Below are positions 3,871 through 33,409 of a stretch of DNA of 64,000 nucleotides, piece after piece (within the stretch, counting starts at the first letter, position 1; the number at the start of each line of letters is the position of its first letter). Origin of the DNA: Blastocatellia bacterium. Its GTDB lineage: Bacteria > Acidobacteriota > Blastocatellia > Pyrinomonadales > Pyrinomonadaceae. The stretch covers positions 6,410-70,409 of the forward strand of contig CAWAZW010000003.1 of the NCBI GenBank assembly GCA_963786645.1, read 5' to 3'. The notes beneath the pieces are model-generated. The model did not search any database, had not been told where the DNA came from, and was given only the letters and a program-made list of their open reading frames with translations. The translations under genes were made by a program, and so were the position numbers.

Positions 3871-3886
3871 ATTACAATTGATTCGC

Positions 3887-5473: not shown

Positions 5474-5492
5474 AAGAGCATTCGATCTGCAG

Positions 5493-7192: not shown

Positions 7193-7987
7193 TTGGTGGT
7201 GAATTCCCCGGGTATCACATTTCGGAAGGCTTCCGTTGTTGCGGTCATAGTACTCCTGGCCTGCGCGCCCCATATGGCCCAGCAGGACGTGCTTAAGAAG
7301 CCTTTCCGGCAGTGGACAGAAGCGGAAGTCACAAAGATCCTAAATGATTCGCCTTGGGCCAAAACGCAGGCAATCCGCGTATTGCGCCGCAAGCAAATGC
7401 GCTCCGTGGCGGGCCAGGTTAGCGAGGTGCCCACCGCTTCCTCTCCTGACGGGCATGTTGCTTTAGGAGGCGCCGAGGATGCTGTTGATTACAGGTTCAC
7501 TCTTCGCTTGCGTTCTGCCCGGCCGGTTCGAGAGGCGATTGTGAGGCTGGTCCAACTCGAATCGAAGTATGACCAATTGCCGCCTGAACAGCGGAAGTCA
7601 ATCGATGAGCAAACAAAGCAATTATTAGAATGTAACGAATGCCGGGACAATTATATCGTTAGCGTTGGTTTCGGCTCCCTTAATAGTCAGAACGTCGATT
7701 TGGTTTACGACTGGTTCAAAGGGCAAACAGTCGCCTCTTTGAAAGGATATATTTATCTCGCAAATGAACTTGGTGAGCGACGGGATCTATTCAATTTTAT
7801 TGCGCCCAAAGTTCCGGGCGACGAAGTGTTCTTCTTTTTCGCGCGGCTCGACGAGAATGGAAAGGCCTTAATCACCTCGCGTAGCAAAAAGTTGCTCTTT
7901 CGCATGAGCGACAAGAATGCAGGCTCAGTAACCAATTTCAATCTGGACGTCGCCAAAATGATCCTGGACGATGAGCCAGAGTTCTAA
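7193..7987 (+). CDS. hypothetical secreted protein
   Basis: Intact 264-aa ORF, 13 nt after the previous stop and co-directional with it. It has a signal peptide (VVAVIVLLACAPHMAQQ). I recognise no family. Confidence 0.6.
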   Translation: MVVNSPGITFRKASVVAVIVLLACAPHMAQQDVLKKPFRQWTEAEVTKILNDSPWAKTQAIRVLRRKQMRSVAGQVSEVPTASSPDGHVALGGAEDAVDYRFTLRLRSARPVREAIVRLVQLESKYDQLPPEQRKSIDEQTKQLLECNECRDNYIVSVGFGSLNSQNVDLVYDWFKGQTVASLKGYIYLANELGERRDLFNFIAPKVPGDEVFFFFARLDENGKALITSRSKKLLFRMSDKNAGSVTNFNLDVAKMILDDEPEF

Positions 7988-8022
7988 GGCCCGAAGATTC
8001 GTCATAGCGATTGAAGCGCCTG

Positions 8023-9929
8023 ATGCGAACGTCAAAAAATCCGTCAGCAGTGAATCTCGCGGGCGCCGTCATACTTATTCTTGCCGTTGCCGGCGTATGC
8101 GCGTCTCAACAGCCGGGACCACCCAAAATCATAAAGGTTGAACCCCCTTCATGGTGGGCTGGCCACACAATCAACCCGGTAAGGCTGCTCGTTCGTGGGC
8201 AGAACCTCTCGGGTGCGCGCGTCCGCGCCACCACGCCGACATTGCAAACGTCAGGACTCCGCATTAATGACCGGGGGACTTATCTCTTCGTTAATGTGAG
8301 AGTCAATGCCAATGCCAGGCCTGGGGCCTACCCACTCATCGTGGAAACCGCGACGGGCCGAGCAACAATCTCTTTTCAGGTTGAGCCGCCTCTTAACCCG
8401 CGAACACGGTTCCAGGGAATCAGCGCCGATGACGTGATTTACCTGATCATGCCGGACCGCTTTGCGAATGGCGATCCGTCAAACGACAAACCTGCTGACT
8501 CTCCGCCCGAGGCCAACGATCGTAAGAACGCTCGCGCTTATCACGGCGGCGACCTGCGGGGCATCATCAATCGTCTGCCATATCTGAAAGCACTCGGTGT
8601 CACAGCGCTCTGGTTAACGCCCTGGTATGACAATTGGAACGGCGTAAACAAGTGCGATAAGCCGTGGTGTCCAAACACCTACTACCATGGCTACCACGCT
8701 ATCGATTATTACGCGGTCGAGGATCGCTTCGGCGACATGGCGACGCTACGCGAGCTGGTCGACAAGGCACACGCCTCCGGCATCAAGGTGATTCAGGACC
8801 AGGTGGCGAATCACGTGGGATCGCGCCATCCATGGGTCCACGATCCGCCGCTCGACGATTGGTTTCATGGAACGCTCGCAAAACATTCGCTGAACAAGTT
8901 TCAGAACAGCACTCTCCTCTCGCCACACGCCAATCGCGATGAATTCAGAAACACACTCGACGGGTGGTTCAATGACGATCTGCCTGACATGAACCAGGAA
9001 CAACCTGAGGTTGCACGTTACGAAATTCAAAACTCGTTGTGGTGGATTGGAATCACCGGGCATAGACGGCGTGAGGCAGGACACGATCCAGTACATGCCG
9101 CGGTTTTTTATACGCGATCTGTCAGATGCGCTCCATCGCCAGTATCCGCGAATGTGGATGGTGGGTGAAGTATTTGAACGTGATGCCGCGCAGACCGCGT
9201 TTTTTATCGGGGGGACATAGAGGGTGGGACGGGATAGATACCAGGCTCGATTCAGTGTTCGATTTCTCGTTATGGAATACGTCTTTACAAGTCTTTACCA
9301 ACAAGTTACCCGTGCGGGCGTTGCGTGATCAATTGAAGTATGACGCTCTTTACCCTGAGCCCTTGCGCGTAACTACACTACAGAACAACCACGACACGGA
9401 CCGTTTCATGTCTTTGGAAGGCGCAACACTCGAAGGCGCAATGCTGCACCTCGCGTTTACTCTGAGCGTACGTGGGATTCCGCAACTCTACTACGGCGAA
9501 GAGATCGCGATGGAAGGCGGCCACGATCCCGATAACCGTCGCGACTTTCCGGGCGGGTTCCCCGGCGATGATCGCAACGCTTTCGATTCTGGCGGCCGCA
9601 GAGCGAAAGAGCAAAAGATGTATGAGTGGACGCGCGCGTGGATACGTCTGCGCGCGGAGCATCCGGCGCTGAGGCAAGGAAAATTGATCGACCTCTTTTA
9701 CGACGACGATACGTATGTCTTCGCGCGACAGGTTCAAACTGAAACCATCATCGTTGCTTTTAATCGAGCGGATAAGAAGAGGGAAATAACCATTCCGGCA
9801 GCGGCTATTGGGATACGCAGTGGTGCCACACTGGCCCCGCTTTTGAGAACGAGTGTGGCTGTTCCAATCGTGAACGGTAGCGCCACGCTAACAGTTGCTG
9901 CTCGAACGGCAGCCGCGTTCAAGTATTAA
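8023..9929 (+). CDS. GH13 alpha-amylase family enzyme with cyclomaltodextrinase-type N-terminal domain (2 frameshifts)
   Basis: Fragments 8011-9168, 9011-9220 and 9126-9929. The N-domain reads KVEPPSWWAGHTINPVRLLVRGQNL. GH13 regions are DRFANGDPSND, GVTALWLTPW, GIKVIQDQVANH, GIDGVRQDT, MVGEVF and NHDTDRF. The junctions lie at GGG 9058-9060 and G6 9209-9214. Confidence 0.85.
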
Positions 9930-9951
9930 ACTATCCGTCCGACCGACGAAT

Positions 9952-11508
9952 ATGAAATTTCCTCGAGCCAGCGGCATCCTGCTTCATCCCACCTCTCTGC
10001 CAGGTTCTTTCGGCATTGGAGATCTTGGTCCGGAAGCTTATTCCTTTGTCGATTTTCTTGCCGCGGCCGGGCAGAGCCTGTGGCAGGTACTGCCGCTTGG
10101 ACCGACGGGTTATGGCGACTCGCCTTATGCCTGCTACTCCGCTTTTGCCGGCAACACTCTGCTTGTAAGTCCTGAAAAGTTGGTTGATGAGGGCTTACTG
10201 GAGTCGACAGATTTAGAACCTTTGCCCGTCTTGCCTGAACACGAAGTGGATTTTGAAAAGGCGCATGCTTACAAGGACGCGATCCTACAAAAGGCATACG
10301 ATCGCTATCAGCATTCGACTGATACTGCTTTAAGAGTCGGCTTTGAGACTTTCGTGCAGGAGAACGCATCGTGGCTGGACGACTACGCGCTATTTCGCGC
10401 ACTGAAAACTGCGAATGGTGGTGTTGCATGGCACGAATGGGAACAATCGCTCGTAAAGCGTGAGCCTGTTGCCCTGTCGCGCGCGCGCGAAGACTTTCGG
10501 GAGCAAATCAACGCGCACAAGTTTTTTCAATTTCTTTTCTTCAAACAATGGTTTGAACTCAAAGATTACTGCAATCAGCTCGGCGTAAGTCTCGTTGGCG
10601 ACATTCCTATCTTTGTGGCCCACGATTCGGCCGATGTTTGGACTAATCCCGAGCAGTTCAAGTTAGACGCTAAAGGAATACCGCTCGTCGTAGCCGGTGT
10701 GCCCCCTGATTATTTCAGTGCGACCGGTCAATACTGGGGTAACCCGCTATACAACTGGGAACGAATGTTGTTCGACGGTTTCAAGTGGTGGATTGGCCGC
10801 GTGCGCGCCAGCTTGCAAATGGTCGACATAGTTCGAATCGACCATTTCCGAGGCTTTGCGGCTTGCTGGGAAATTCCGGGGGGCGACAACACTGCGGAGC
10901 GAGGACGTTGGGTCGAAGCGCCTGGTCGAGAATTGTTTGAGGCCGTGAAGAGGGAACTGGGCGACTTACCAATCATTGCAGAAGACCTGGGCGTGATCAC
11001 TCCCGACGTGGAACGATTGCGCGACGATTCTGGTTTTCCTGGGATGCGAATACTGCAGTTTGCTTTCAGCAGCGATACTAAGAATATCGATCTCCCCCAC
11101 AACTACCATCAGAACGTAGTAGTTTACACGGGCACTCACGACAACGATACAACGGTGGGATGGTTCAATAGCGCGGCAGGTGAAGGTTCGACACGTACCG
11201 CTGCGCAGATTGCTCACGAACACGATTTCTCCAAGAAGTATCTCAATACCGAGGGCCGCGAAATTCACTGGGATTTTATCCGCGCCGTGTTGGCGTCAGT
11301 TGCAAATACCGCAATTATCCCACTACAGGATTTGCTCGGGCTGGGCACTGAAGCACGAATGAATCTTCCAAACAGCACGAAAGGAAATTGGAGTTGGCGA
11401 TTCAGGCAGGGAGCACTATCAAGCTCGGACGGTACGCGGCTACGTGAGATGACGGAAACTTATGGGCGTATTCCGAAGCGTGAAGTTGAGAGTATGAAGT
11501 TGGACTAG
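9952..11508 (+). CDS. malQ: 4-alpha-glucanotransferase (amylomaltase, GH77)
   Basis: Intact ORF with its start at ATG 9952. The N-terminus MKFPRASGILLHPTSLPGSFGIGDLG is typical of MalQ. GDIPIFVAHDSADVW, RIDHFRGF and the full length also fit. Confidence 0.9.
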   Translation: MKFPRASGILLHPTSLPGSFGIGDLGPEAYSFVDFLAAAGQSLWQVLPLGPTGYGDSPYACYSAFAGNTLLVSPEKLVDEGLLESTDLEPLPVLPEHEVDFEKAHAYKDAILQKAYDRYQHSTDTALRVGFETFVQENASWLDDYALFRALKTANGGVAWHEWEQSLVKREPVALSRAREDFREQINAHKFFQFLFFKQWFELKDYCNQLGVSLVGDIPIFVAHDSADVWTNPEQFKLDAKGIPLVVAGVPPDYFSATGQYWGNPLYNWERMLFDGFKWWIGRVRASLQMVDIVRIDHFRGFAACWEIPGGDNTAERGRWVEAPGRELFEAVKRELGDLPIIAEDLGVITPDVERLRDDSGFPGMRILQFAFSSDTKNIDLPHNYHQNVVVYTGTHDNDTTVGWFNSAAGEGSTRTAAQIAHEHDFSKKYLNTEGREIHWDFIRAVLASVANTAIIPLQDLLGLGTEARMNLPNSTKGNWSWRFRQGALSSSDGTRLREMTETYGRIPKREVESMKLD

Positions 11509-11572
11509 TGGGCTGCCGGAGGCCTTGAAAAGACTTAGAACGGATCCACGAAATTACACGAACGGGCAACGC

Positions 11573-13470
11573 ATGCATAACTTCTTTTTAAAATTCCTGT
11601 TCTCCGCCACGCTCCTCCCCTTCTGCGTTGCGCCGCTTGCCGCACAGGCTCCGGAGATCCTCAAAATTGATCCGCCGAGTTGGTGGGTGCAGAGTTCGGT
11701 GAATCCCGTGCGCGTCCTCATCAAAGGTCGTCATCTTAATGGGGCCCGGCTGCAGGCGTTGGGCAGTGGATTACGCATTGTGGGCCAGCCAAAGATCAAT
11801 CAGGCCGGTACATACGTCTTTGCCGACTTTTCGATTGCCCCTACTGCACGTGCAGGTAAACGGCGAATCAGAGTTACAACTCCGGCCGGGGCTACCGAAG
11901 CGGGCTTTGATGTTCTACCGACCCTGAATCGTGCCGGTCGTTTTCAGGGGTTCTCGCCTGACGATGTGATGTATCTGATCATGATCGATCGTTTCAGTGA
12001 CGGCGATCAGACGAACAACGATCCTCCTGATTCACGCGGTATCTACGACCGCGATAACAAGTTTTACTACCACGGCGGAGATCTTCAGGGCGTCATAGAT
12101 CGTTTGCCTTATCTCAAGGACCTTGGGGTGACGGCGCTCTGGTTAACGCCCTGGTATGACAACTACAACGGTCTGAATCGTATTGAACTGAAAGAAGACA
12201 AGCCCAGCACGGGCTTTCACGGTTACAACCCCCAGGACTTCTATGGGGTCGAAGAACACTTCGGCACGCTTGCGAAGCTTCAGGAGCTGGTGGAAGCCGC
12301 GCACAAGGTTGGGATCAAAATCATTCAGGACCAGGTGGTGAACCATACCGGCCCTTATCATCCCTGGGTAGATGATTCGCCCACGCTCACCTGGTTTAAC
12401 GGCACCAGGAAGAACCATCTTAAGAACGTTTTCCAAACGTGGGTGTTACACGATCCACGACCCGTTGAGGATTTGAAGCGCGAAACAATGGAAGGTTGGT
12501 TCCTCGACTTTCTCCCGATCTGAACCAGAACGACAGGGAAGTTTCACGTTATCTGATTCAGAATACTTTGTGGTGGATCGGCACGACAGGCCTCGACGGC
12601 ATTCGCATGGATACCTGGCAGTATGTGCCAAACAGTTTCTGGCGCGATTGGACCAGGACTGTTAGACGCGAGTTTCCACGGTTCACTGTAGTTGGCGAAG
12701 TCAAAGATGGAGAGGTGGTCCATACCTCTTTTTTCCAGGGCGGCAGGGTCCGTTTTGACGGCGTGGATTCGGGCCTTGACTCGTTGCTCGACTTCCCACT
12801 CTTTTATCCGATTCGCCACGCCTTCGCGGAAGGTAAGACGCTGGATGATGTACCTAAGACTCTGGCGAAGGATTATCTCTATACAAATCCTGAAATTCTG
12901 GTGACGTTGCTGGGTGGCCACGACGACGGGAGGTTTATGAGCGAGAAAGGCGCCACCTTGGAAGGACTGAAGTTGGCGAATACTCTTGTGCTGACTACGC
13001 GTGGAGTGCCGCAGCTTTATTACGGCGACGAAATCGCGATGACTGGCCCAGACGAACCGACCACACGGAAGGATTTTCCTGGAGGCTTCCGCGGCGACAA
13101 GCGCAACGCTTTTACTCATGAGGGACGGACGCGAGAAGAGAACGACGTTTTCAACCACATTCGCAGACTGACCCTGCTGCGCAAGGATTTTGAGCCACTG
13201 CGTCGCGGAGAATTGATTAATCTCCATGCCACCGGCCAGCAGTATGCCTATGCGCGGAAGACAAGGGAGCAGCTTGCCATCATTGTCATCAACAACGATA
13301 AGACAGGCGCGACCATCGAGTTTGACGTTTCGCGTTTAGGCCTCCCAAACGGCACTTTGCTAAACGATCGTTTACTTCGCATCCGTACGGTTGAGGTTCG
13401 AGATGGAAAATTACGTGTCGCGCTTCCGCAGAGGGCGGCGGCTATACTCAGTTGTAATGCAAACTGTTAG
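11573..13470 (+). CDS. GH13 alpha-amylase family enzyme, paralog of 8023-9929 (1 frameshift at CCC 12514-12516)
   Basis: Fragments 11525-12523 and 12496-13470 align by eye along the whole length with the 8023-9929 protein. Shared segments include KIDPPSWWVQSSVNPVRVLIKG, GVTALWLTPWYDN, IKIIQDQVVNH, GLDGIRMDT and VVGEV. The signal peptide starts at ATG 11573. Confidence 0.85.
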
Positions 13471-13538
13471 TTGGCCCGAAGGTAAGTTGTAATCAGCGGT
13501 GGGCCAACTAGAAGTTTGCGTTACCACGAAAGTCGACG

Positions 13539-14258
13539 ATGAAGACAAAACCCTTATCCGAGCAGGTCGCTATCGTAACCGGCGGAGGCAGTGGGATAGG
13601 CCGAGCCTTCACCGAGGGGCTCGCCACAGCCGGCGTTAGAGTCGTGATTGCTTCGCGACGAACTGACGTCTTACGCCGGACGGCAGACGAGTTGAATCAG
13701 AAACTAAATACTGAGCTGGTGTTTCCATACGAGTTTGACATTCGCGATCCAGAGCGCGTGGACTTGCTCGTTAGTGATGTCTTCGCGCGGTGGAAAAGTA
13801 TTGATGTGCTGGTAAACAACTCCGGTCTCGCTGTGCCAGAGACGGCCGAGAAGATCACGGACGAAGGTTGGGACACAGTCATAGAGACTAACCTGCGCGG
13901 TGCTATGCAACTCGTCAGGGCTGTGCTGCCGCACATGACTGCTAATGACTTTGGCGACATCGTGAACGTCTCCTCGCAGGCTGGGAAGCATGGGTACGCA
14001 GACGTGCCTTCTTACTGCGCATCGAAGTTTGGACTGCTTGGTTACGCTGAAGCAGTGCGCGACCACGTTCGCAAAACGGGAGCAAACGTGCGGGTGTTCA
14101 ATTTCTGCCCTGGGTTGGTGGATGTTGTAAACACTCAACTAGAGCAAGCGCCTCACGATGGATTCATTCATGTTGAAAACCTGGCGAAGACATTGATGTA
14201 TGTTCTATCGCTTGAGCGCAATGTGGTGTTGGAAGATATCAACATGTATGCGCGCTAG
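13539..14258 (+). CDS. short-chain dehydrogenase/reductase (SDR) family oxidoreductase
   Basis: It has the TGGGSGIG cofactor motif, NNSG, and the catalytic S...YCASK. Confidence 0.85.
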   Translation: MKTKPLSEQVAIVTGGGSGIGRAFTEGLATAGVRVVIASRRTDVLRRTADELNQKLNTELVFPYEFDIRDPERVDLLVSDVFARWKSIDVLVNNSGLAVPETAEKITDEGWDTVIETNLRGAMQLVRAVLPHMTANDFGDIVNVSSQAGKHGYADVPSYCASKFGLLGYAEAVRDHVRKTGANVRVFNFCPGLVDVVNTQLEQAPHDGFIHVENLAKTLMYVLSLERNVVLEDINMYAR

Positions 14259-14371
14259 GGAACGGTCGCGGCTTTCCCGCCTGATGTGCGGCGGCCGTTT
14301 TCGCCCTGCCGAGCCTGGCCTTAAAATTTTAGGGCTACGCCCGTTCGGGGGGCAGCCCGAATGTCAAGATA

Positions 14372-14424
14372 GCGGCCTTGCCGGAAGGGCATAGCCACTT
14401 CCGCACATCAAGCGGCATAGCCGC
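14372..14424. repeat. REP-like hairpin element (GCGGC-N3-GCCGC family, degenerate copy)
   Basis: Left arm gcggccttgccgg (14372-14384) and right arm gcggcatagccgc (14412-14424). The preceding gatagcggc is shared with the copy at 49311-49351. Confidence 0.4.
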
Positions 14425-14458
14425 GATCCTATTTGCAAGTTCACATTCTGGAAGGACC

Positions 14459-15865
14459 ATGCCAATGCAAAAACCACGCTTAAGTTTCTGGCAGATTTGG
14501 AACATGAGTTTTGGTTTCCTCGGCATCCAGTTTGGGTGGGGCTTACAAATTGCCAACATGAGCCCGATCTACAAATACCTGGGGGCCGAAGAAAGCACGC
14601 TTCCCTATCTTTGGCTTGCCGGTCCGATCACAGGTCTGATCGTGCAGCCCATAGTAGGAGCAATGAGTGACCGAACGTGGAACCGCTTCGGACGGCGTCG
14701 CCCTTACTTTCTTGCCGGTGCGATCCTCGCCAGTATCGCGCTTTTCTTCATGCCCAACTCCGGCGCGATATGGATGGCTGCCGGTCTGCTCTGGATTCTC
14801 GACGCCAGTATCAACATCACTATGGAGCCCTTCCGGGCCTTCGTCGCCGATAAGCTACCCGAGGAACAGCGCACACTCGGCTTCGTCATGCAAAGCTTCT
14901 TCATCGGCATCGGTCAGACGCTTGCAAATGCGTTGCCGATTATCCTTACGGCGGTCGGTGTGACGGGCGTGCTGGCTAGCGGCATTCCGGTAACGACCGA
15001 GTACGCTTTTAAGATTGGAGCGGTCGTCTTCCTGCTGGCTGTATTGTGGACAGTGGTGACCACTAAAGAGTACCCGCCCGATGACATAGCCGCATTTGAG
15101 CGGATGAAACGTGAACGCCGTGGAGTGCTTGGTGGTTTTGTCGAGATCTTTTCATCGATCAAGGAAATGCCGAAGACGATGAAGCAGCTCGCCGTCGTGC
15201 AGTTCTTTACCTGGTTTGCGTTGCCATGCATGTGGCAGTTTTTCGGCTTGGCTGTCGCGCGACAAGCATTCGGTGCCACCGATTCAAACACGCCGGGATT
15301 CAAAGAGGGAACGGAATGGGGCGGTCTTTGCTTTGCGGTCTATAACATTGTTTGCTTTGCGATTGCCTTCCTGCTGCCGGCTCTTGCTAAAGCAACGAGC
15401 CGTAAGACCGTTCACGCAATCGCCCTTTTTTGCGGTGGCCTTGGCCTTATTTCGGTCTATTTTATCCAGAATAAGTACGGGTTTTGGCTTTCAATGGCCG
15501 GCGTTGGTATTGCCTGGGCTTCAATCCTCTCGATGCCTTACGTCATGCTATCTACTGCCGTGCCGCCGATGCGTATGGGGATATATATGGGTGTCTTCAA
15601 CCTTTTCATAGTAATTCCTCAAGTGGTCATGTCGTTCGTCATGCCGCCGCTCATCAATAACGTTATTGGTGACGATCCGGTCAGGGTAGTAATGATCGGC
15701 GGGGCGAGCCTTCTGGTGGCAGCGCTCTCAGTCTTCATTGTTGATGATTCAAACAAAGCTGTCCCTGTCAGTAGCGTTCTGGAAGCCGACGAACATGAAC
15801 TACTGACGACTGTGGGCACAGCGCAACCGGTACCCAGCACCGGGCTGATCGACAAGGAAGGTTAG
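14459..15865 (+). CDS. MFS/GPH-type glycoside transporter (SLC45 / sucrose-maltose symporter-like)
   Basis: Twelve hydrophobic segments. [15 protein letters not shown] and [16 protein letters not shown] are typical of sucrose/maltose H+ symporters. The start is ATG 14459. Confidence 0.8.
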
Positions 15866-15887
15866 GGCGTTTGCCGGAGGAAGAAAC

Positions 15888-17297
15888 ATGAATCGCGCTT
15901 TGAAATTGTTTCTCGGGACCTTGGTACTGCTGGTTGGATCAACAGGAGACGCTCGGGCTTGCGTTTGCGGTATGAGCTTTCTTCAGTGGCAGCCCTGTTC
16001 TGCTTATTGGAACGCAGATGTGGTCTTCGCCGGCACGGTTACTGAAGTTGGACCAATGATTCCGGTCAAGGGCAGCGATGGTAAGTCATTTTCTGCAAAC
16101 GGGCGCTTCACTCGCTTCAGGGTAGACGACGCGTTTCGCGGCGTAACCGGAGTTGTAGTTGAGACCTACGAACACGGAACCTCATGCGACTACCATTTCA
16201 AACAGGGCGAACAATACTTTGTTTACGGCAACCGCGATCCTAAAGACGGACGGATCTATGTAGGCAGTTGCACCGCAACTAAGTCCCTGGCTCATTCAGC
16301 GGCGGATCTTGATTTTGCTCGGGGCGCAGCGCGTGGCGATTCAATGCCCAGCCTTATAGGCGCAATAAATCGCGAGATACGGCAGGACGCCGCTTCGTAT
16401 CGCAGCCAAAAACCGATGGAGAGCGTCGAAGTGGCCGTGGAAGGAAATGGACGATCGTTGACAGCAAAAACGGATGCTGAAGGTCGCTTTAGATTTTATG
16501 GGCTCGCCGCCGGGAAATATCGCGTCACAGCGAGGACATCTCGTGAGCTCCGTAGTCTTTATGGGCCTGAATCCGTCGAAGTGACCATTCGCGATGGACG
16601 CTGCAGCGGGGCAAGCTTCACAATTACTTCCTTGTCCCCTGTCACCGGTACCGTGTTGGACCATACGGGCAAACCCGCGCAGGTCCGTTTGAATCTGGTG
16701 CTCCTGGATGAAGCGGGTGAGGAGACGCAGATGGCGGAAGGCAGTGTCGAATCCTACTCAACGCCTGATGGGGTTTATAAGTTTGATTGGGTGGCCCCCG
16801 GCCGCTACCGGCTGGCAGTTAACGCCAAAAGCCAGCCCGGAAGTTCTGACCCTCCTTACCCACGTGCGTACCTGCCTGGAGTCATCGATCCATCACAAGC
16901 AATCATCATCGAGATAACAGAAAGACAGGGATACGAAGCGCCGGAGTTTCGACTGCCGCCCCCGCTTGCGGAGGCGACCGTTGAGGGTATTGTGTTTCTT
17001 CCCGACGGTTCGCCAGCAATCGGAGCATTAATCTCACTCGAATTCACTGAGCGTGAGTGGTTTGAAACGTTTAGTACCGATAGCCAGGGGCGTTTCAATC
17101 TCAAAGTTTTCGCCGGTTACAAGTACCTGATATCAGCAGAACTCCGCAAAGAAGTTGCCGGCAAGTGGATCGCCACGCACTCTGCCCCAATTGAAGTGGT
17201 CGCCGGAGACACTACCGAACAGTTGAAACTAACAGTAAACCGAACGGGTTTCTATAGGCCCGCATTTGTGAGGCAGAAGCGCGAGGTGCCCAAATGA
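15888..17297 (+). CDS. secreted protein: N-terminal TIMP/NTR-like domain followed by carboxypeptidase-regulatory-like beta-sandwich repeats
   Basis: Intact 469-aa ORF. The signal peptide ends ...GDARA, then CVCGMSFLQWQPCSAYWNADVVF. Repeats such as TDAEGRFRFYGLAAGKYRV, TPDGVYKFDWVAPGRYRL and TDSQGRFNLKVFAGYKY follow. The stop overlaps the next start as ATGA. Confidence 0.7.
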   Translation: MNRALKLFLGTLVLLVGSTGDARACVCGMSFLQWQPCSAYWNADVVFAGTVTEVGPMIPVKGSDGKSFSANGRFTRFRVDDAFRGVTGVVVETYEHGTSCDYHFKQGEQYFVYGNRDPKDGRIYVGSCTATKSLAHSAADLDFARGAARGDSMPSLIGAINREIRQDAASYRSQKPMESVEVAVEGNGRSLTAKTDAEGRFRFYGLAAGKYRVTARTSRELRSLYGPESVEVTIRDGRCSGASFTITSLSPVTGTVLDHTGKPAQVRLNLVLLDEAGEETQMAEGSVESYSTPDGVYKFDWVAPGRYRLAVNAKSQPGSSDPPYPRAYLPGVIDPSQAIIIEITERQGYEAPEFRLPPPLAEATVEGIVFLPDGSPAIGALISLEFTEREWFETFSTDSQGRFNLKVFAGYKYLISAELRKEVAGKWIATHSAPIEVVAGDTTEQLKLTVNRTGFYRPAFVRQKREVPK

Positions 17298-18721
17298 GGA
17301 TCCTGCCGCTCAACAGACTAGCCGTTTCGCTCGCGTTAGTTTTTTCTCTAAGTCTAACTACGCCGCCACAGTCCCGCCCTGCGGATGACGTTTCGAAAAA
17401 GTCCGCCAGGACCGCCCGCGAATGGGTGCGCGACGGCGTCATTTACGAAATCTATCCGCGTGCTTTTTCGCAGCAGGGAAACTTCAACGGGATTACCGCT
17501 CGGCTTGATGACTTGAAGGAACACGGCGTGACTATCCTTTGGTTGATGCCCATACATCCAATTGGCCAACTAAAGAAGAAGGGAACCATCGGTAGCCCGT
17601 ACGCAGTGCGCGACTATTACGGAATCAATCCTGACTACGGCTCGAAAGAAGATCTTAAGCGTTTAATCTCCGAGTCTCACAAGCGCGGTATGAAGGTGAT
17701 CATTGATATCGTCGCCAATCACACCTCCTGGGACAGTGTGTTGATGAAGCATCCGGAATTCTACAAGCGCGACGCGAAAGGCAACATCACCTTTCCCTAC
17801 GATTGGTATGACATCGCCGCCCTTGACTACAGCAACGCGCAGTTGCGTCGTTATATGATCGACATGTTGAAGTACTGGATTCGTGAGTTTGACCTGGATG
17901 GTTTTCGTTGTGACGTCGCCGGCGAAGTCCCAACGGATTTTTGGGAAAACGCGCGCGCCGAATTGGACCAAATCAAACCCGACATTTTCTTGCTGGCCGA
18001 AGCACACAAAGCTGAGTTACTGGTGAAGGCGTTTGAGCTGGACTACTCCTGGCCGATGCACAGCGCGTTAACCGATGTGTTGCAGGGACGTAAGAGTGCC
18101 GGTGAGATTCGCGCGGCGTGGGAAGACGAAGTCAAGAAGTGGCCGCGGAATTCCCTGCACATGCGGTTTTCGGATAATCACGACGAGCGTCGTGCGATTG
18201 CGCGTTTCGGCGAACGTGGCGCATTGGCGGCCTCGGCGTTGGTATTTACTTTGGATGGCGTGCCGCTCATTTACAACGGAATGGAGGCGGGCGACACGAC
18301 TGAATCAGGCGCGCCGGCGCTATTTGAAAAGCTGCCAATCTTCTGGCCTTTTGCGGAACGCCGGCCGGAGTTTCCGAGATTCTACAAGCAGATGACTGCG
18401 TTGCGACGTTCGAGCAATGCGCTGAGGCGTGGTTCGCTCGAGTGGTTACATAATTCCGACGAGACGCGCATCGTTAGTTACCTGCGGCGCACACGGAATG
18501 AAGAAGTGTTGGTTGCTATCAACCTCTCGAGTCAACGGTTTGTGGGCTCGATTGAAGTACCGGCTCAGCCGGGCTTTAAGGACGTCACTCCCGACGTGGG
18601 CGCGCCGTTACCGCCTGACGTGTTCAATCCGGATCGTACCGCGAGAAACCGGACAGTAGGCTTGCCGGCGCTGGCCTTAGAAGCGTGGGGTTACCGCATC
18701 TTCCGTCGAGAGATAAAGTAG
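17294..18721 (+). CDS. secreted GH13 alpha-amylase family enzyme
   Basis: Intact ORF with a signal peptide. GH13 regions are GVIYEIYPRAF, VTILWLMPIHP, VIIDIVANHTS, GFRCDVAGEVP, LLAEA and SDNHDE. Confidence 0.85.
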   Translation: MRILPLNRLAVSLALVFSLSLTTPPQSRPADDVSKKSARTAREWVRDGVIYEIYPRAFSQQGNFNGITARLDDLKEHGVTILWLMPIHPIGQLKKKGTIGSPYAVRDYYGINPDYGSKEDLKRLISESHKRGMKVIIDIVANHTSWDSVLMKHPEFYKRDAKGNITFPYDWYDIAALDYSNAQLRRYMIDMLKYWIREFDLDGFRCDVAGEVPTDFWENARAELDQIKPDIFLLAEAHKAELLVKAFELDYSWPMHSALTDVLQGRKSAGEIRAAWEDEVKKWPRNSLHMRFSDNHDERRAIARFGERGALAASALVFTLDGVPLIYNGMEAGDTTESGAPALFEKLPIFWPFAERRPEFPRFYKQMTALRRSSNALRRGSLEWLHNSDETRIVSYLRRTRNEEVLVAINLSSQRFVGSIEVPAQPGFKDVTPDVGAPLPPDVFNPDRTARNRTVGLPALALEAWGYRIFRREIK

Positions 18722-18760
18722 GTTTTAGCTGTTGCCAGGGATGTAAAGAACAAGACCACA

Positions 18761-20893
18761 TTGTCTAGACCTCTTTTTATTTTCGTGATGTTGTCAGCAG
18801 CTCTGTTCGGACAAGCAGCCAACCGGCAAGCGCCGGGCGCTCCCGGACAGGATGCTCATTGGCCCAGCGCAGCCAAAAACGGTTTCGGTACATCCGATAC
18901 GATCGCCTCAAAAGTATGGTTCACACTTAATAACGGGGTAATGACCGAGGTGTTTTACCCAAGACTTGATGTGCCCAATTCGCAAACTCTCCAGTTGATT
19001 ATCTGCAACCAACGAGGATGTCAGATTGAGGCAGAAGACTCGGTACACGAAATTCGAGTCCTTGATTCGCGGTCCCTTTCCTTTCAGCAAATCAATAAGG
19101 CAAAGGATGGCTCCTATGTCATCACCAAGACCTACGCCACTGATCCTGAGCGCGCTACTATTCTGATCCAAGTTGACATCGCTTCCGCGCCGGGCGGTGA
19201 TATCTATGTCTTCTTCGACCCATCGCTTAATAACAGCGGGATGCATGACACGGGTTGGACAAAGAGCAGTGCCTTGCTTGCTGTAGATGCAAATGTCGCA
19301 TCAGCGCTGATTTCCAGCAGTGGTTTTTCGGAGACGGCCAATGGCTTCCTGGGTAGCAGCGATGGTTTGACCCAGCTAAAACAAAAAGGCGTTATCACAG
19401 ACAAGTATGAACGAGCGGAAAATGGAAACGTCGTTCAGGTCGCGCGAGTAGCCCGAGCGAGAAGCTTCACACTCGCGCTTGGATTTGGTGCCAAGCCAGA
19501 GGAAGCCTTGATGAACGCGCAAGCTTCACTGGCTAAAGGTTTCGCGCGGGTAAGTAGCGACTACGACGCCGGGTGGCACGCCTATCTGCGATCCTTGCGG
19601 CGGGTGGAGCCAAGGTATGAGCGGCAGTTCAACATGTCGGCAATGGTTTTGAAAGCTCTGGAAGACAAAACCTATCGTGGCGCGATGGCTGCTTCACCCT
19701 CGGTTCCGTGGGGTGGTGGACCAAACGCTAATGAAGCAACGGTCAGCGGCTATCATGCGGTTTGGTCGCGCGACCTTTATCACGTCAGCACTGCTTTCCT
19801 GGCAATGGGCGATCGGGCTACGGCAGATCGCGCGCTCAACTATCTCTTCAGGACACAGCAAAAGCGCGACGGTAGTTTTCCGCAGAATTCGTGGATTGAT
19901 GGCAGGACAATTGGCAACGGAATTCAGATGGACCAGGTGGCGTTTCCTATATTGCTTGCCCACCAACTCGGTCGCAACGAGCGCGACACCTGGGTGAAAC
20001 ACATTAAGCCTGCGGCAGATTTCATAGTTCGCAGCGGCCCAACCACAGAACAGGACCGCTGGGAAGAGGAATCGGGATATTCACCGGCCACCATTGCCGC
20101 GCAGATTGCGGGGCTCGTTTGTGCGGCCCGCATCGCGATGGTGAATGGCGATGCCGCGTCGGCCACCACCTATCTTAATAAGGCCGATGAATGGGCGATT
20201 GGCCTGGATAGTTGGACTGTTACTACGACTGGCCCACATATGAAGGGAAAATACTACCTTCGCATAACTCAAGGCGATCCAAACGCATCGGCGGCGCTCG
20301 AAATAAACAGCGGCGGCGGCCTTTATGACCAGCGACTAATTGTCGATGCAGGGTTTCTGGAACTGGTCCGGTTAGGAATCAGAAAAGCGTCCGACACGAC
20401 GATTGTTGGTTCGTTAAGGGTAGTCGACGAATTGATTAAGGTGAACACACCCAACGGCCCGGCCTGGTATCGCTATAACCACGACGCGTATGGCGAAGGC
20501 CCGGATGGCCGGGACTATGACGCTCGCACCGGCAAAGGACGCCTGTGGACGTTGCTTACCGGCGAAAGAGGCGAGTATGAGTTGGCGCGGGGGAACTTTG
20601 GCGCTGCACATCGCAGTCTCGACGCCATGATGAAGTTTGCAAACGATGGGCTTATGATTCCCGAGCAGGTCTGGGACCAGCGGGAATCGCCGCGGCCAGA
20701 CCTTCGAATTGGTGAAGGGACAGGCTCCGCGACGCCCTTGGCCTGGTCCATGGCACAGTTTGTTCGGCTCGCACTAAACGTTCGTGCTAAACGTAATCTC
20801 GAAACACCCGCAGTTGTGCGCGCGCGTTATTTGCACGCACCAGGCAACAAACCCGATCGACTGCGCTTTCGAAAATCTTCTCCAAACAGGTAA
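18761..20893 (+). CDS. GH15 glucoamylase (glucan 1,4-alpha-glucosidase) with bacterial N-terminal domain
   Basis: Intact 710-aa ORF with a TTG start and a signal peptide. It has GYHAVWSRDLY, DRWEEESGYSPATIAAQIAGL and LMIPEQVWD. Confidence 0.85.
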   Translation: MSRPLFIFVMLSAALFGQAANRQAPGAPGQDAHWPSAAKNGFGTSDTIASKVWFTLNNGVMTEVFYPRLDVPNSQTLQLIICNQRGCQIEAEDSVHEIRVLDSRSLSFQQINKAKDGSYVITKTYATDPERATILIQVDIASAPGGDIYVFFDPSLNNSGMHDTGWTKSSALLAVDANVASALISSSGFSETANGFLGSSDGLTQLKQKGVITDKYERAENGNVVQVARVARARSFTLALGFGAKPEEALMNAQASLAKGFARVSSDYDAGWHAYLRSLRRVEPRYERQFNMSAMVLKALEDKTYRGAMAASPSVPWGGGPNANEATVSGYHAVWSRDLYHVSTAFLAMGDRATADRALNYLFRTQQKRDGSFPQNSWIDGRTIGNGIQMDQVAFPILLAHQLGRNERDTWVKHIKPAADFIVRSGPTTEQDRWEEESGYSPATIAAQIAGLVCAARIAMVNGDAASATTYLNKADEWAIGLDSWTVTTTGPHMKGKYYLRITQGDPNASAALEINSGGGLYDQRLIVDAGFLELVRLGIRKASDTTIVGSLRVVDELIKVNTPNGPAWYRYNHDAYGEGPDGRDYDARTGKGRLWTLLTGERGEYELARGNFGAAHRSLDAMMKFANDGLMIPEQVWDQRESPRPDLRIGEGTGSATPLAWSMAQFVRLALNVRAKRNLETPAVVRARYLHAPGNKPDRLRFRKSSPNR

Positions 20894-20898
20894 AGCAC

Positions 20899-23390
20899 TT
20901 GAACCAAACAATTCGCCTATTATGTCTTGCCGCACTTCTGGTGCTGACAACTGCTTCGGCAAAGTCAGTTCTGGCCCAGGACATCACCACGCTCGAAAAA
21001 ATTGGACCGGTTGCAAGCTTTACCAAAACAGAACGTGGTGTCACATTCAATTGCCGCGACAATTCCCAGGTGCAAGTCTCGGTTTTAGCCGCTGATTTAA
21101 TTCGCGTTCGAGTGTCTTTCGCCAAGCCCATTCCAACGAAAGACCACTCCTGGGCAATTGCCAGGAACGATTGGTCGCCGACGCGTTGGAGCATCACCGA
21201 AACTGCCGAGGCAGTCGTCATAAGCACCGATGAAATCGAGGTCTTAGTGCGTCGCATGCCGTTGCTGATTGAATTTCGCGACGCCAAGACACATGCGCCG
21301 ATCAATTCCGACGAGCAGCCAATGGCTTACGATGCGAAAGGGCTGCTGAAGAATATGTTGTTTGACCCCAGTGCGGGAATGTTTGTGGCGGCATCGAAGA
21401 AACTTGGCTTCGATGAACATTTTTACGGACTCGGTGAAAAAGCTGCGCGACTCGACAAGCGTCGTAGCTCTTTCATTAACTGGAATTCCGACACGCCGGG
21501 ATACACCGAAGGCAAAGATCCGATTTACCAAACCATTCCGTTCTACATCGGACTCACGGGACCGCACTGCCTACGGAATTTTCTTTGACAACAGCTACCG
21601 GAGTTATTTTGACTTCGGAAAATCTTCGCAGCAGCGCGCGTGGTTTGGAGCTGAGGGCGGCGAGCTAAACTACTACTTTTTCTATGGGCCATCGATAAAG
21701 AAGATTCTAAGCCGCTACGCTGACCTGACTGGTCACATGCCGATGCCACCTTTGTGGGCGCTGGGCCACCAGCAGAGCCGTTGGAGTTATTACCCCGACA
21801 CGATGGTCGAGGAAGTTGTGAGGCAATATCGCCAGCGAGATTTACCGCTTGATGTGGTGCACCTCGACATCGATTACATGCAAGGCTACCGGGTGTTCAC
21901 CTGGGACAGAAGTCGCTTTCCAAGTCCCAAATCGTTAGCTGAGAAACTCGGCAGGCAGGGGGTGAAGTTAGTAACGATCGTCGATCCGGGAGTCAAGCAT
22001 CAACCTGTTCCACCGAGTACTGGGCGCGTTACTTCCATAACTCCGGAACTGGAGCCTCAGGAGCAGCGCTATTACGTCTTCGACCAGGGACTCGAGCGCA
22101 AGTACTTTCAACGTCGGAAGAATGGCGACTTGTTTGTCCCCAGGGTGTGGCCCGGCGAAAGCGTATTCGTGGACTACACATTGCCCGACGCTCGCTCATG
22201 GTGGGGCGCTCTGCACCGCGCTTACCTTGACCACGGCGTCGCCGGTATTTGGACCGACATGAACGAGCCGTCTGACTTTGTCGATCAAACCGGCAAGAAT
22301 CAAATTGACGTGGTGAGTCATGACGAAGGGGAAAAGTCGACGCACGCAAAAAACCGGAACGTGTTTGCCCTTCTGATGGCCCGAGTCAACCTACGAGGGG
22401 CTGCAGAAACTTCGGCCGAACGAGCGTCCTTACGTCATCACGCGCGCCGGGTATGCCGGCATTCAGCGGTATTCGACCATGTGGACCGGCGACACCAATA
22501 GCACATGGGAATCGCTGCAGCTCAGTGTTCCGATGTTTGCAACGCTTGGACTTTCGGGGGAACCATTTGTCGGCGGCGATGTCGGCGGATTTATTGGCCG
22601 CGGCAACGGCGAGTTGCTGGTGCGTTCGTATCAGGTGAGTTTTCTCGCGCCCTTTTGTCGCAATCACAAGGTGATCGACGGTTACGATCAGGAGCCGTGG
22701 CGCTTTGGAAAACACTACGAAGACATCATTCGCAAGTATCTGAAGTTGCGGTATCAGTTGCTGCCCTTTCTCTACACCACCCTGGAGGAGGCACACCGGA
22801 CTGGGGTGCCGCCGTTTCGCCCGCTGGTGCTGAACTACCAGGACGATCCCAATACTTACAATCTCGACGATCAGTTCATGATCGGAAACGATCTGCTGGC
22901 GGCGCCTGTGTTGAAGCCAGACGTGACCAGGCGGTTGGTCTATTTGCCGAAAGGTGTTTGGTACGATTACTGGACCAACAAGAAGTATGAAGGCGGCACG
23001 ACAATAACCGTCGACGCTCCACTGGAGACCGTGCCGCTGTTCGTGCGAGGTGGCGCCATTATTCCGAGCGGCCCCCGATTGAATTTTGTGAACGAAAAGC
23101 CGGTCGACCCGATCACATTCAGCATCTATCCTGACAGTAATGGCGCCGCGTCAACTTTACTCTACGAAGATGACGGGATCAGTCCGGCTTATGAACAGCA
23201 GGGCTTTCGCAGAACAACCATCAACGTCGAACGGTCTGCAACCGGCTACACGGTGACGATGGGAGCTCCATCAGGTCTTTATAAACCTGGCCCACGAAAT
23301 TTTGCCTTTGTAATAAAGTCAGAAAGCAGGGTGCCCCGGGTGACGACGGTTCCGGATGATGGCACTCCCCGCAAACTTACGATCAGATAA
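20899..23390 (+). CDS. GH31 alpha-glucosidase (2 frameshifts)
   Basis: Fragments 20899-21588, 21362-22501 and 22479-23390. Motifs are WNSDTPGY, DVVHLDIDYM, GIWTDMNEPS, WTGDTNSTWESL and FCRNH. Confidence 0.85.
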
Positions 23391-23411
23391 CTTACTGAAG
23401 CAGTCCAGTCT

Positions 23412-23603
23412 CCTCTCCCTTTGGGAGAGGGCAGGGGAGAGGGCTTGGGAGCGAACAAGACTCTTGTAATTTGTAGGTAGCGTCAACTCCTGTTAGGTTG
23501 CGCATTATGCAAACGTGACCCGGACTGCGAACGTTGACGCTTCCTACAGGACAAAAAGGTATGTCGTCGCAAGCCCTCCCCTAACCCCTCCCAAAGGGAG
23601 GGG
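23412..23603. repeat. Inverted pair of a ~38-bp G/C-rich unit flanking a nested inverted repeat (MITE-like element or convergent terminators)
   Basis: Left unit cctctccctttgggagagggcaggggagagggcttg (23412-23447). The reverse complement of 23568-23603 is cccctccctttgggaggggttaggggagggcttgcg. Each unit contains a triloop hairpin: cctctccc-ttt-gggagagg and cccctccc-aaa-gggagggg. The inner inverted repeat is tgtaggtagcgtcaac (23472-23487) with gttgacgcttcctaca (23533-23548). Confidence 0.5.
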
Positions 23604-23675
23604 AACTCTCGTTTCCTCCACAGCGATGCAGTGTAACTCGTTGCACTTCCATGTTGAATTCGCGATCACCATCTG

Positions 23676-25113
23676 TTACGAAGCTTTTCTTAGGCGTCGG
23701 TTTGTCACGCGCACGGGTTTAGCATATTTGACCAGGCCGACGTATCCCATCGCCCGCGGAATCTCTCCGTTTTGCATGAACCAGCGCCAAACATTTCCGG
23801 TTCGCATATTCTCCGCACTCAGAAGAATTATTCCGACATTGATCCCAATCGCATCGCTGTCTACCCAACCAGTATTGGGATTGAATGCGTCGACGAAGCC
23901 ATACTTCCCGTAGATCTGCTTGCCATACTGATCGTGCATGGCGCGCAGAGCACTAACTGAGATTTCAGGAGTAAACATCAGCGAGCCGCCCGCGGCAGAA
24001 GGTACTACCGTACCGTCAATTGCCGGGTCGCGGGGCGGGCCACCCCACGCCAAATAACCTTTAGCGCTATCCGAGGCAGTGATACCCCAAACATTTGGTC
24101 CGATACCCGGGAAATTCGTGAGACAGGATTATGCAGAACGCGCGATGGGCCAACGTGGCGCTCTTCGAATTCTCAAAATAGTCGATGCGATCGCCTCTCG
24201 TCTCCCGACGATTTCGATAATCGATCCAGGCATGCGCGTACTGGTGCATAAACAATGGAACGCCAATAGTTGTGAAGTAAGCGTGACCTTCATAGCGATA
24301 GCGATCACGCCACAACGCGTACCAGGCATTCGGCGAAATCGGATGTGTCGGCGACCCGATTGCGAGCAAATAAAGAATGGTGTCTTCGCTATAAGTGTCC
24401 CATCGAGGTTTTAGAAAGCCTGTCTCCGGTTTCCACCCATGGGACAATAACGTTGCGTGCCCGTTAAGCATCCAGCGGAAATCGGTGCGTTCATAGATCT
24501 TTGTTGCCAGTCGAACTATCTCGGCATCGTTTCGATAATACTGTCGCGCCGTAAGGATTCCGCCGAGTAATAAAGCAGTGTCAATAGAAGAGACCTCGCT
24601 TTGCCAGCGCCTTTCGCCCGTTTTCGCATCCAGCCAATGGTAGAACCAGCCGTGTTTCTGGAAGGCCTTGTCCGCAAAAAAGCGCAGTGTATTGCGCACA
24701 CGTTCACGGGCCTGTTCGGAAGTGATCCATTTTCGCTCGGCGGCAATGCAAAGAGCAGTCAAACCAAAACCCGTAGCTGCGATACTCGCAACATTGCGGT
24801 GACTTTCCTGTAAAGGCGAACCATCCATCCGGGCGCGGTCGGGAACCAAACCGGTGTTGGGATCGGCTTGCTCCCAGAAGTATTGAAACGACCGGCGCGA
24901 AAGGTCTTCAAGAAAAGCCTCATCGCGTTGGTCAATACGCGCGGTCTGGATAGGTTTTGTTCTGAAACCTTCCGCCGGACGCTGCTGCGCTATGTTGTAT
25001 TGAGCGAGGGAGATCAATAGCAAGAAAACTGCTACCAATCTGGAAAGAAGTTTGGGAAATGCCGCTATTGGATTCAAGGTTTGCTGTGACTGAGCGGATT
25101 CTTCGAGGCTCAC
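23676..25113 (-). CDS. GH144-like 'glucoamylase family' glycosidase (putative endo-beta-1,2-glucanase family; 1 frameshift)
   Basis: Fragments 24067-25113 and 23676-24053. It has a signal peptide. FWEQADPNTGLVPDR, SIAATGFGLTAL, HGWFYHWLDAKTGER, SSIDTALLLGGIL and GFVDAFNPNTGW match my memory of the PF10091/GH144 family. GTG start at 25113. Confidence 0.65.
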
Positions 25114-25116
25114 AAT

Positions 25117-25335
25117 CTATCCATTCTTAATGCGTGTCTGGTTGCGGCTCTTATAAAACACTGCAGCCGAGATCAAAAAAATCGCGGCAGCAGCGAATTG
25201 CATCGCAATATCGAACGTGCTCTTCACTGGCAGGCTCATATTCAAGAACGAGGGGGCGAAAATGTCCCGAAGACCGGCCATTAACATCACCAGCCCGGTA
25301 GCCAGAAGAAGCATAATTACAGTTCTTAAATTCAT
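25117..25335 (-). CDS. small 2-TM membrane protein (paralog B), unknown function
   Basis: 72 aa with two hydrophobic helices. It shares GLRDIFAPxF..MS and DI..QF..AA.FL..AA with the upstream 74-aa ORF. Its stop is 3 nt before the GH144-like start. Confidence 0.6.
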   Translation of the reverse strand: MNLRTVIMLLLATGLVMLMAGLRDIFAPSFLNMSLPVKSTFDIAMQFAAAAIFLISAAVFYKSRNQTRIKNG

Positions 25336-25372
25336 TTTATTCTTTGCATCTGCGGAGCTTATCTTTGCCTAC

Positions 25373-25597: not shown

Positions 25598-25598
25598 T

Positions 25599-28050: not shown

Positions 28051-28071
28051 GGATGGGCTACACGCCCATCC
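28051..28071 (-). terminator. hairpin terminator downstream of the minus-strand TBDR
   Basis: ggatgggc-tacac-gcccatcc, an 8-bp perfect stem. It starts 25 nt after the TBDR stop and is followed on the minus strand by ATTTGCATTT. Confidence 0.45.
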
Positions 28072-28095
28072 ATTGCCTGGATTCCGTGCGCGAGA

Positions 28096-33348: not shown

Positions 33349-33409
33349 GATAGGAATCTGAAGCTACGGTGTCCACCGATTCCATGTTTAAGGGGTCGGA
33401 TCTCATTAG

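Follow-up and report, generated by a model that had tools for sequence, protein, structure and literature searches.

The serralysin inhibitors (Pseudomonas APRin, Erwinia/Serratia Inh; MEROPS I38) are periplasmic bacterial proteins that use their N-terminal residue to ligate the catalytic zinc of a metzincin. This interaction mode has been noted as resembling that of tissue inhibitors of metalloproteinases, or TIMPs (PMC8235301), in which the free amino group of Cys1 coordinates the protease zinc and residue 2, a serine or threonine in TIMP-1 to TIMP-4, enters the S1' pocket and acts as the S1' determinant (PMC9409782). The literature treats TIMPs as a family of the Metazoa (PMC9409782, PMC10755359). 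A lipoprotein of Listeria monocytogenes, Tim (LMRG_00714), has been called TIMP-like; it is paired with the metzincin Mtz, and its TIMP-like fold is known by prediction only (PMC8235301). The authors of that study found no record of bacterial TIMP-like proteins (PMC8235301). Here, we describe a gene (15888 to 17297, forward strand) in a 64,000-nt stretch of DNA from a Blastocatellia bacterium (the window, within which all positions are numbered). Judged from sequence, it is well supported that its product is a Sec-exported, soluble four-domain protein in which the N-terminal domain, although bacterial, is homologous to the N-domain through which animal TIMPs inhibit. An earlier annotation made from the letters of this DNA (the sequence-only reading) had proposed such a domain, and its individual claims are taken up below.

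The open reading frame (ORF) encodes 469 amino acids, beginning with MNRALKLFLGTLVLLVGSTGDARA and continuing, after the predicted cleavage point, with CVCGMSFLQWQPCSAYWNADVVFAG; mature residues are numbered from Cys25, which becomes Cys1. The signal peptide ending in AxA and followed by Cys-x-Cys, as described in the sequence-only reading, was found in this ORF as A-R-A preceding CVCG. Likewise, its approximately three carboxypeptidase-regulatory-like repeats correspond to three stretches of CarboxypepD_reg (PF13620) that Pfam places within residues ~170 to 460 (76.1 bits; cut-off, 32.3 bits). In the same full-length Pfam scan, residues 25 to 160 remained without any assignment, and no match of the carbohydrate-binding module (CBM) type was obtained in the protein; an NCBIfam scan of the protein returned nothing relevant.

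The relationship of this unassigned N-domain to TIMPs became apparent at the level of profiles. A BLASTP comparison of the window protein with TIMP-2 gave E = 0.32, yet the alignment was collinear and paired Cys76 with Cys72 and Cys104 with Cys101. PF00965 (TIMP) was the sole Pfam match of the isolated N-domain, at E = 0.13 and 12.4 to 12.8 bits against a cut-off of 23.1 bits, spanning only profile positions 10 to 109 of 183, and phmmer with the single sequence found nothing relevant in the PDB. Since a word-indexed homolog search with the N-domain yielded one match only, an exhaustive HMMER search was needed, in which residues 1 to 164 served as the query against 1.84 billion cluster representatives (50% identity). 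It retrieved 2,160 proteins at E≤1e-3, 325 of them at E≤1e-10, many being 430 to 480 amino acids long; this family of ~2,160 clusters originates mostly from soil metagenomes. When a profile built from an alignment of 80 mature bacterial N-domains was searched against all PDB sequences using hmmsearch, N-TIMP-2 (2tmp) ranked first (E = 1.5e-5), human TIMP-2 (1br9) reached E = 3.5e-5 and bovine TIMP-2 E = 8e-4, and all other entries were in the noise (E≥0.08). The profile aligns with TIMP-2 from residues 1 to 102 on residues 1 to 102, with Cys1, Cys3, Cys76, and Cys104 placed on TIMP-2 Cys1, Cys3, Cys72, and Cys101, and hhalign of the 80-sequence alignment against TIMP-2 gave a probability of 96% (E = 4.3e-9, 102 columns). 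Scanned singly, 52 of the 80 members matched PF00965 (best E value, 3e-7), one matched the NTR family PF01759 at E = 0.21, and no further Pfam family was matched by more than one member; on this count, 52 against 1, TIMP proper is a closer match to the family than are other NTR modules. A PF00965 match is also precomputed in the database for one JGI homolog.

The nonsignificant single-sequence comparisons (BLASTP, Pfam, and phmmer) are compatible with chance or convergence, i.e., with an unrelated OB-fold domain that shares its cysteine spacing with TIMPs. This explanation is scarcely credible in view of the significant profile statistics, which are in register from residue 1, and of the concordant fold prediction obtained independently, and we consider the N-domain very probably homologous to the inhibitory domain of TIMPs. 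The TIMP-2 N-terminal sequence quoted in the sequence-only reading agrees with the PDB alignments over residues 1 to 102, and the two additional cysteines at mature positions 76 and 104, which had been described as lying close to TIMP-2 Cys72 and Cys101, are put in register with them by the profile alignments.

The structure of the N-domain was modeled with AlphaFold2 from the 80-sequence alignment and without templates. The model reached a predicted local distance difference test (pLDDT) value of 89.3 and a predicted template modeling score (pTM) of 0.83; a single-sequence AlphaFold run of the full protein was uninformative (pLDDT of 35). As revealed by Foldseek, the first ~38 matches of the model in the PDB all belong to the TIMP/NTR group, specifically TIMP-1, TIMP-2, and TIMP-3, the NTR domain of PCOLCE, agrin NtA, the C345C domains of C3/C4/C5, and the NTR domain of meteorin. 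The best E value was 8e-7, and the template modeling (TM) scores to N-TIMP-1 (3ma2_C) were 0.69/0.75. OB folds of a generic kind (e.g., ribosomal protein S12, cold-shock domains) came only at ranks lower than the TIMP/NTR matches, and a Foldseek search of viral structures gave generic OB folds only, none at E≤1e-3. The predicted fold of the N-domain is the TIMP/NTR OB fold on which the sequence-only reading had staked its proposal.

Among the 150 best family representatives, 140 carry C-x-C straight after the hydrophobic presequence, and of the remaining 10, four are N-terminally incomplete and six show variants (CxxC, CC, CxS, or a single Cys). Of these 140 representatives, 138 have Ala or Gly at position -1, and 132 have Ala, Val, Ser, or Thr at position -3 (97 of them Ala); at position -2, Arg, Glu, Leu, Asp, and Asn prevail. 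In 229 distinct complete N-termini, the (-3,-1) rule holds for 216 (94%) and a hydrophobic core is present in 219, the median presequence comprising 25 residues. A free amino group on Cys1 is predicted because the family presequences fit cleavage by signal peptidase I directly before Cys1, and a free Cys1-x-Cys3 terminus following such cleavage is a well-supported prediction; the conservation of this motif in homologs, which the sequence-only reading had named as a check, is thus borne out.

A cysteine directly after the signal peptide would also be expected of a lipoprotein, as which the Listeria TIMP-like protein has been published (PMC8235301). In that case, Cys25 would occupy position +1 after a signal-peptidase-II site and carry the lipid, and the acylated N-terminus would be unable to chelate zinc. 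However, the window protein reads D-A-R-A-C at this site and has no lipobox, and the pattern [LVI][ASTVI][GAS]C occurs in only 6 of the 229 presequences (2.6%). Together with the prevalence of Ala at position -3 and the residues given above for position -2, these data render lipidation very improbable. Residue 2 was compared in 237 sequences, of which 123 have Ser and 49 have Thr (172/237, 73%); the window protein carries the rarer Val.

The cysteine framework of the family is predicted to follow that of TIMPs in two of three disulfides. In the 150 best representatives, Cys13, Cys76, and Cys104 are conserved to 95%, 98%, and 99%, respectively, and conservation of the four cysteines Cys1, Cys3, Cys76, and Cys104 lies between 98 and 100%. 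The pairs Cys1-Cys76 and Cys3-Cys104 are the expected disulfides because they align exactly with Cys1-Cys72 and Cys3-Cys101 of TIMPs; column for column, these four cysteines agree with those of TIMP-2, a point that the sequence-only reading had left to be checked. It had also stated that both proteins have Cys1, Cys3, and Cys13 followed by NADVV. Cys1 and Cys3 hold, whereas the spacing from Cys13 to NADVV is numerically right for TIMP-2 only: SAYW intervenes in the window protein, NADVV occupies residues 18 to 22, and the profile alignments pair NADVV with NADVV, leaving the two "Cys13" residues offset by approximately four positions. The sixth N-domain cysteine of TIMPs is Cys126 in TIMP-2. 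In the bacterial family alignment, no cysteine past Cys104 is conserved inside the N-domain, and thus the third TIMP disulfide, Cys13-Cys124/126, has no counterpart there. Instead, a sixth cysteine at residue 239 (mature 215), located in the first beta-sandwich, is conserved to 92%, and six is the commonest cysteine count per mature family protein. Among sequences of sufficient length, 149 have Cys13 as well as Cys215 and 4 have neither, with 1 and 0 discordant cases (Fisher p = 2e-7, without correction for relatedness); stand-alone relatives without sandwiches have four cysteines only. Because Cys13 and Cys215 covary, the third disulfide appears to be rewired to the first sandwich, a putative interdomain bond Cys13-Cys215 replacing Cys13-Cys126 of TIMPs.

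An exported protein with six invariant cysteines and a CxC motif on its mature N-terminus might alternatively bind Zn, Cu, or Fe through free thiols or take part in thiol-disulfide exchange. The cysteine positions, however, coincide exactly with the disulfide partners of TIMPs, the fold is that of TIMP/NTR rather than of thioredoxin or a metallochaperone, and the cysteine number is even, with Cys13 and Cys215 gained or lost together as for a disulfide. A metal-binding or redox function is accordingly improbable.

The features of the locus are compiled in Table 1. The gene starts 22 nt past the stop codon of the upstream MFS gene. For the sandwich region (16344 to 17294), weak Pfam matches to MG3 (E = 1.8e-4) and MG4 (E = 0.11) of bacterial alpha-2-macroglobulin were recorded as well, at residues 169 to 221 and 372 to 406. 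A combination of MG-type sandwiches and an NTR fold is reminiscent of how complement C3/C4/C5 are built; the matches probably represent generic beta-sandwich similarity.

Table 1. Features of the TIMP-like gene and its immediate neighbors in the window
Feature	Position	Strand	Basis or remark
MFS sugar transporter	14378-15865	+	Upstream partner kept in four loci
Shine-Dalgarno-like GGAGG	15876-15880	+	7 nt before ATG; read from sequence
Sec-type signal peptide, 24 aa, MNRALKLFLGTLVLLVGSTGDARA, with A-R-A signal-peptidase-I site (predicted)	15888-15959	+	Sequence and family statistics
TIMP-like OB-fold N-domain, mature residues 1-128 (predicted)	15960-16343	+	Profile searches, AlphaFold2, Foldseek, PF00965 matches, hhalign
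Cys1 (C25) codon	15960-15962	+	Read from sequence
Cys3 (C27) codon	15966-15968	+	Read from sequence
Cys13 (C37) codon	15996-15998	+	Read from sequence
Cys76 (C100, GTSCDYHF) codon	16185-16187	+	Read from sequence
Cys104 (C128, YVGSCTA) codon	16269-16271	+	Read from sequence
First CarboxypepD_reg-type beta-sandwich	16344-16637	+	Pfam; holds the sixth conserved Cys
Codon of residue 239 (mature 215), the conserved sixth Cys	16602-16604	+	Putative partner of Cys13
Second CarboxypepD_reg-type beta-sandwich	16638-16967	+	Pfam; boundaries approximate
Third CarboxypepD_reg-type beta-sandwich, short basic tail, and stop codon	16968-17297	+	Boundaries approximate
ATGA overlap (TGA stop of the TIMP-like gene, ATG of the GH13 amylase)	17294-17297	+
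GH13 alpha-amylase, 475 aa, hydrophobic N-terminus	17294-18721	+	Downstream partner kept in four loci

A genome scan with the single protein revealed one relative only, with 73% identity, in a metagenome-assembled genome of the Pyrinomonadaceae (Acidobacteriota; locus L001). The exact window protein had no record when looked up among public assemblies. The gene order at L001 is that of the window, i.e., GH77, GH13, MFS, TIMP-like, and GH13 amylase, and the ATGA overlap with a secreted amylase gene that the sequence-only reading had pointed out is present in the window and retained in this orthologous locus. The cassette of MFS, TIMP-like, and GH13 amylase genes occurs in four loci (window, 14378 to 18721; L001, 3661 to 7985; L055, 338 to 4594; L020, 1502 to 5829), with a stop/start overlap of the TIMP-like gene and the amylase gene in at least two of them. 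The TIMP-like gene is predicted to be co-transcribed with the signal-peptide-bearing GH13 amylase and is probably translationally coupled to it. A promoter and terminator scan of positions 9500 to 24000 gave sites no more frequent than in shuffled sequence, and no operon boundaries were drawn. In the two soil loci L055 and L020, the cassette neighbors are 61 to 79% identical to those of the window, whereas the TIMP-like proteins are only 28 to 31% identical, the divergence being spread across all domains. Either unusually fast evolution or in situ replacement by a paralog would account for this, and rapid divergence relative to syntenic neighbors fits an arms-race protein.

For a broader view, we surveyed the neighborhoods (±3 genes) of 84 loci, 80 of them from soil metagenomes, comprising 295 neighbor genes. 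The commonest neighbor was UvrC, found in 9 of ~70 loci, and outside the window lineage no conserved partner was seen; other recurrent neighbors were unrelated (thioesterase, alpha/beta-hydrolase, ParE, FecR, and NtrC-type regulators). The contexts of three stand-alone relatives were uninformative, and no paralog of the TIMP-like gene was found in the window.

The conserved cassette and its overlapping genes bring up the main rival explanation, according to which the N-domain would not be an inhibitor but, like agrin NtA, the PCOLCE NTR domain, or the netrin C-domain, an NTR-type module for binding or scaffolding that serves alpha-glucan utilization. Such a module would tether or stabilize the co-translated GH13 amylase or bind glucan or the cell envelope, and the N-terminal cysteines would be purely structural. 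The glucan-related surroundings of the gene, the lack of a linked protease in the window and among the 295 neighbor genes, and the Foldseek matches, which also take in non-inhibitory NTR modules, favor this explanation. Conversely, no carbohydrate-related neighbor is conserved across the 80 soil loci, the protein has no CBM-type match, members match the TIMP rather than the NTR profile, and a Cys1 at position +1 of the mature chain together with Ser/Thr at residue 2 is specific to inhibitory TIMPs and does not occur in internal NTR modules. On balance, we regard the scaffold explanation as unlikely, although it deserves serious consideration; the lipoprotein, metal/redox, and chance explanations are unlikely as well, and in the far stronger sense given above for each.

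With a probability of roughly 0.5, the window protein is a TIMP-like, zinc-chelating metalloprotease inhibitor. We favor this reading because strict conservation of the junction between cleavage site and Cys1, of the two predicted ridge disulfides, and of Ser/Thr at residue 2 would make little sense if the free N-terminus had no function; NTR modules that are internal and non-inhibitory do not show this feature. Several observations weigh against it. Many NTR-fold modules are non-inhibitors. The isolated N-domain matched PF00965 only below the cut-off, and the N-terminal 10 residues of the AlphaFold2 model are less confident than the remainder (pLDDT of 73). No metzincin motif was detected in any of the 295 neighbor genes within ±3 genes at the 84 loci, and no real ORF of the window carries HExxH. 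Furthermore, the ~24 kb surrounding the gene constitute an alpha-glucan cluster with GH77, three GH13 genes, GH15, and GH31, and alpha-glucan utilization, as the sole conserved context (four loci), hints at a carbohydrate-related role.

Under the favored inhibitor reading, signal peptidase I would cut after A-R-A, as predicted from the sequence and the family statistics, so that Cys1 becomes the first residue and bears a free alpha-amino group. Three disulfides (Cys1-Cys76, Cys3-Cys104, and Cys13-Cys215) would then form in the periplasm; the first two would build a rigid N-terminal ridge, and the third would tie the N-domain to the first beta-sandwich. By analogy with TIMPs, the ridge would enter the active-site cleft of a zinc metalloprotease, where the alpha-amino and carbonyl groups of Cys1 would chelate the catalytic zinc and residue 2, Val in the window protein, would occupy S1'. 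The three CarboxypepD_reg sandwiches might stand in for the TIMP C-domain, either as a stalk or as an exosite platform. Plausibly, the protein would guard exported alpha-glucan-degrading enzymes, or the periplasm, against metalloproteases of competitors or of the cell itself.

What would be new here, as read from the sequences, is that bacteria possess the TIMP warhead domain, set in a new architecture and with its third disulfide rewired. Bacterial TIMPs that begin with CxC were not found in open-literature searches, and the multidomain family members that were looked up are all "hypothetical" or unnamed. The statement of the sequence-only reading that no bacterial TIMP-type inhibitor is known needs qualification in view of a Paenibacillus relative named automatically in UniProt and of the published Listeria "TIMP-like" lipoprotein. 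The bacterial family of ~2,160 clusters seems to keep the defining warhead, namely, Cys1-x-Cys3 at the predicted mature N-terminus and both anchoring disulfides. If this is true, the origin of the TIMP inhibitory mechanism moves into bacteria, inhibitor engineering gains natural N-TIMP-like scaffolds by the hundreds, diverse at residue 2 and in loop chemistry, and an unrecognized layer of protease/anti-protease conflict exists among soil communities. A more far-reaching proposal, to which we assign somewhat less than even odds, is that these proteins are true bacterial TIMPs and make up a very large family, ancient and quickly evolving, whose exported members block zinc metalloproteases through the free Cys1 amino group in the way of animal TIMPs. 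The warhead would be a bacterial invention from which metazoan TIMPs, perhaps also NTR modules, descended. The family would serve inter-microbial protease warfare in soil Acidobacteria, here protecting an exported amylase system, and the disulfide-locked sandwich stalk would be a new architecture.

Further observations concern the remainder of the window and the family. Besides the genes named above, the alpha-glucan cluster holds TonB-receptor-like genes, tetratricopeptide repeat (TPR) proteins, a short-chain dehydrogenase/reductase (SDR), MFS, a glucoamylase-like gene, and GH3. Many genes are in pieces of two to three overlapping ORFs (window positions 88 to 3322, 3878 to 7179, 8011 to 9929, 11525 to 13470, 20899 to 23390, 24067 to 26994, and 28058 to 32091); they comprise a TonB-receptor-like outer membrane protein, a TPR protein, two GH13, GH31, glucoamylase-like, and GH3 genes, and a second outer membrane protein. 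Because their L001 orthologs are intact (e.g., GH13 with 632 and GH3 with 694 amino acids), these splits suggest either pseudogenization or a noisy assembly with indel errors; the TIMP-like ORF is intact, with 469 amino acids as in L001. Two products from within the carbohydrate-utilization region (7193 to 7987, +, 264 amino acids; 39626 to 41002, -, 458 amino acids) had no Pfam match at E≤1e-5. Past the glucan cluster, positions 32707 to 38702 encode a sugar ABC transporter (periplasmic binding protein, ATPase, and permease), a ROK-family kinase/regulator, and phosphofructokinase, and since these genes follow the glucan cluster, the window looks like one island for carbohydrate uptake and catabolism. 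Elsewhere in the family, one soil contig (L017) carries tandem full-length paralogs of 450 and 434 amino acids (7834 to 9183 and 9929 to 11230) and is the only multicopy locus among those analyzed. An ORF of 840 amino acids at L025 (855 to 3374) consists of a complete family protein and a polytopic membrane region of ~370 amino acids with His-rich motifs (e.g., HNLQYHRLIWFHNH); either a genuine fusion or an artifact of a frameshift could explain this ORF.

Among the described systems, metazoan TIMPs (TIMP-1 to TIMP-4; PF00965, MEROPS I35) are matched in the predicted OB-fold N-domain, in the predicted Cys1-x-Cys3 start of the mature chain, in the register of the partner cysteines (72 and 101 in TIMP-2), in the predominance of Ser/Thr at residue 2, and in the core motifs A-D-x-V-[FI] and [YF]-L-[IV]-x-[AG], which are common to both. 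The bacterial family differs from them in its source (the Pyrinomonadaceae/Acidobacteriota relative and soil metagenomes), in the replacement of the TIMP C-domain (~65 amino acids, three disulfides) by three CarboxypepD_reg beta-sandwiches, in the putative attachment of the third disulfide to the first sandwich with Cys13 shifted by ~4 residues, and in the loop before Cys76, which is usually glycine-rich (GGGDCGY). The NTR/C345C modules (PF01759: netrins, complement C3/C4/C5, PCOLCE, sFRPs, and meteorin) and agrin NtA share the OB-type fold (Foldseek E values of 1e-6 to 1e-3) and the cysteine framework; in contrast to the bacterial domain, which is N-terminal, they are internal or C-terminal, have no free Cys1, and are mostly non-inhibitory.

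The Paenibacillus contaminans protein A0A329M7M0 (WP_113035477), named "Tissue inhibitor of metalloproteinase" automatically in UniProt and hypothetical at NCBI, is a member of this bacterial superfamily (E = 1.6e-19 against the family profile) and has a signal peptide ending in F-A before CSC as well as the two cysteine pairs. Unlike the window protein, it is a stand-alone domain with a C-terminal transmembrane anchor, four cysteines, no Cys13, and no sandwiches. Stand-alone TIMP-like proteins of this kind were found outside the Acidobacteria (L002, 8001 to 8567, in P. contaminans QMFB01000031; P0158, P0166, P0167, and P0171) and consist of a signal peptide, CSC directly after an Ala, a four-Cys domain, and a C-terminal transmembrane helix with a basic tail; this layout suggests a membrane-tethered form of the same warhead. 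No protease is encoded near the stand-alone gene in L002.

Listeria Tim is likewise a bacterial exported protein with a proposed TIMP-like fold, but it has the lipobox LTAC, no N-terminal CxC, and a gene beside that of its protease; moreover, it is cleaved by its partner metzincin, and inhibition of this partner is not what was shown (PMC8235301). To the serralysin inhibitors, finally, the likeness is one of functional analogy only: they form an unrelated eight-stranded beta-barrel without CxC, their gene adjoins that of the protease, and Pfam scans of the window protein and of its N-domain gave no match to the serralysin-inhibitor family.

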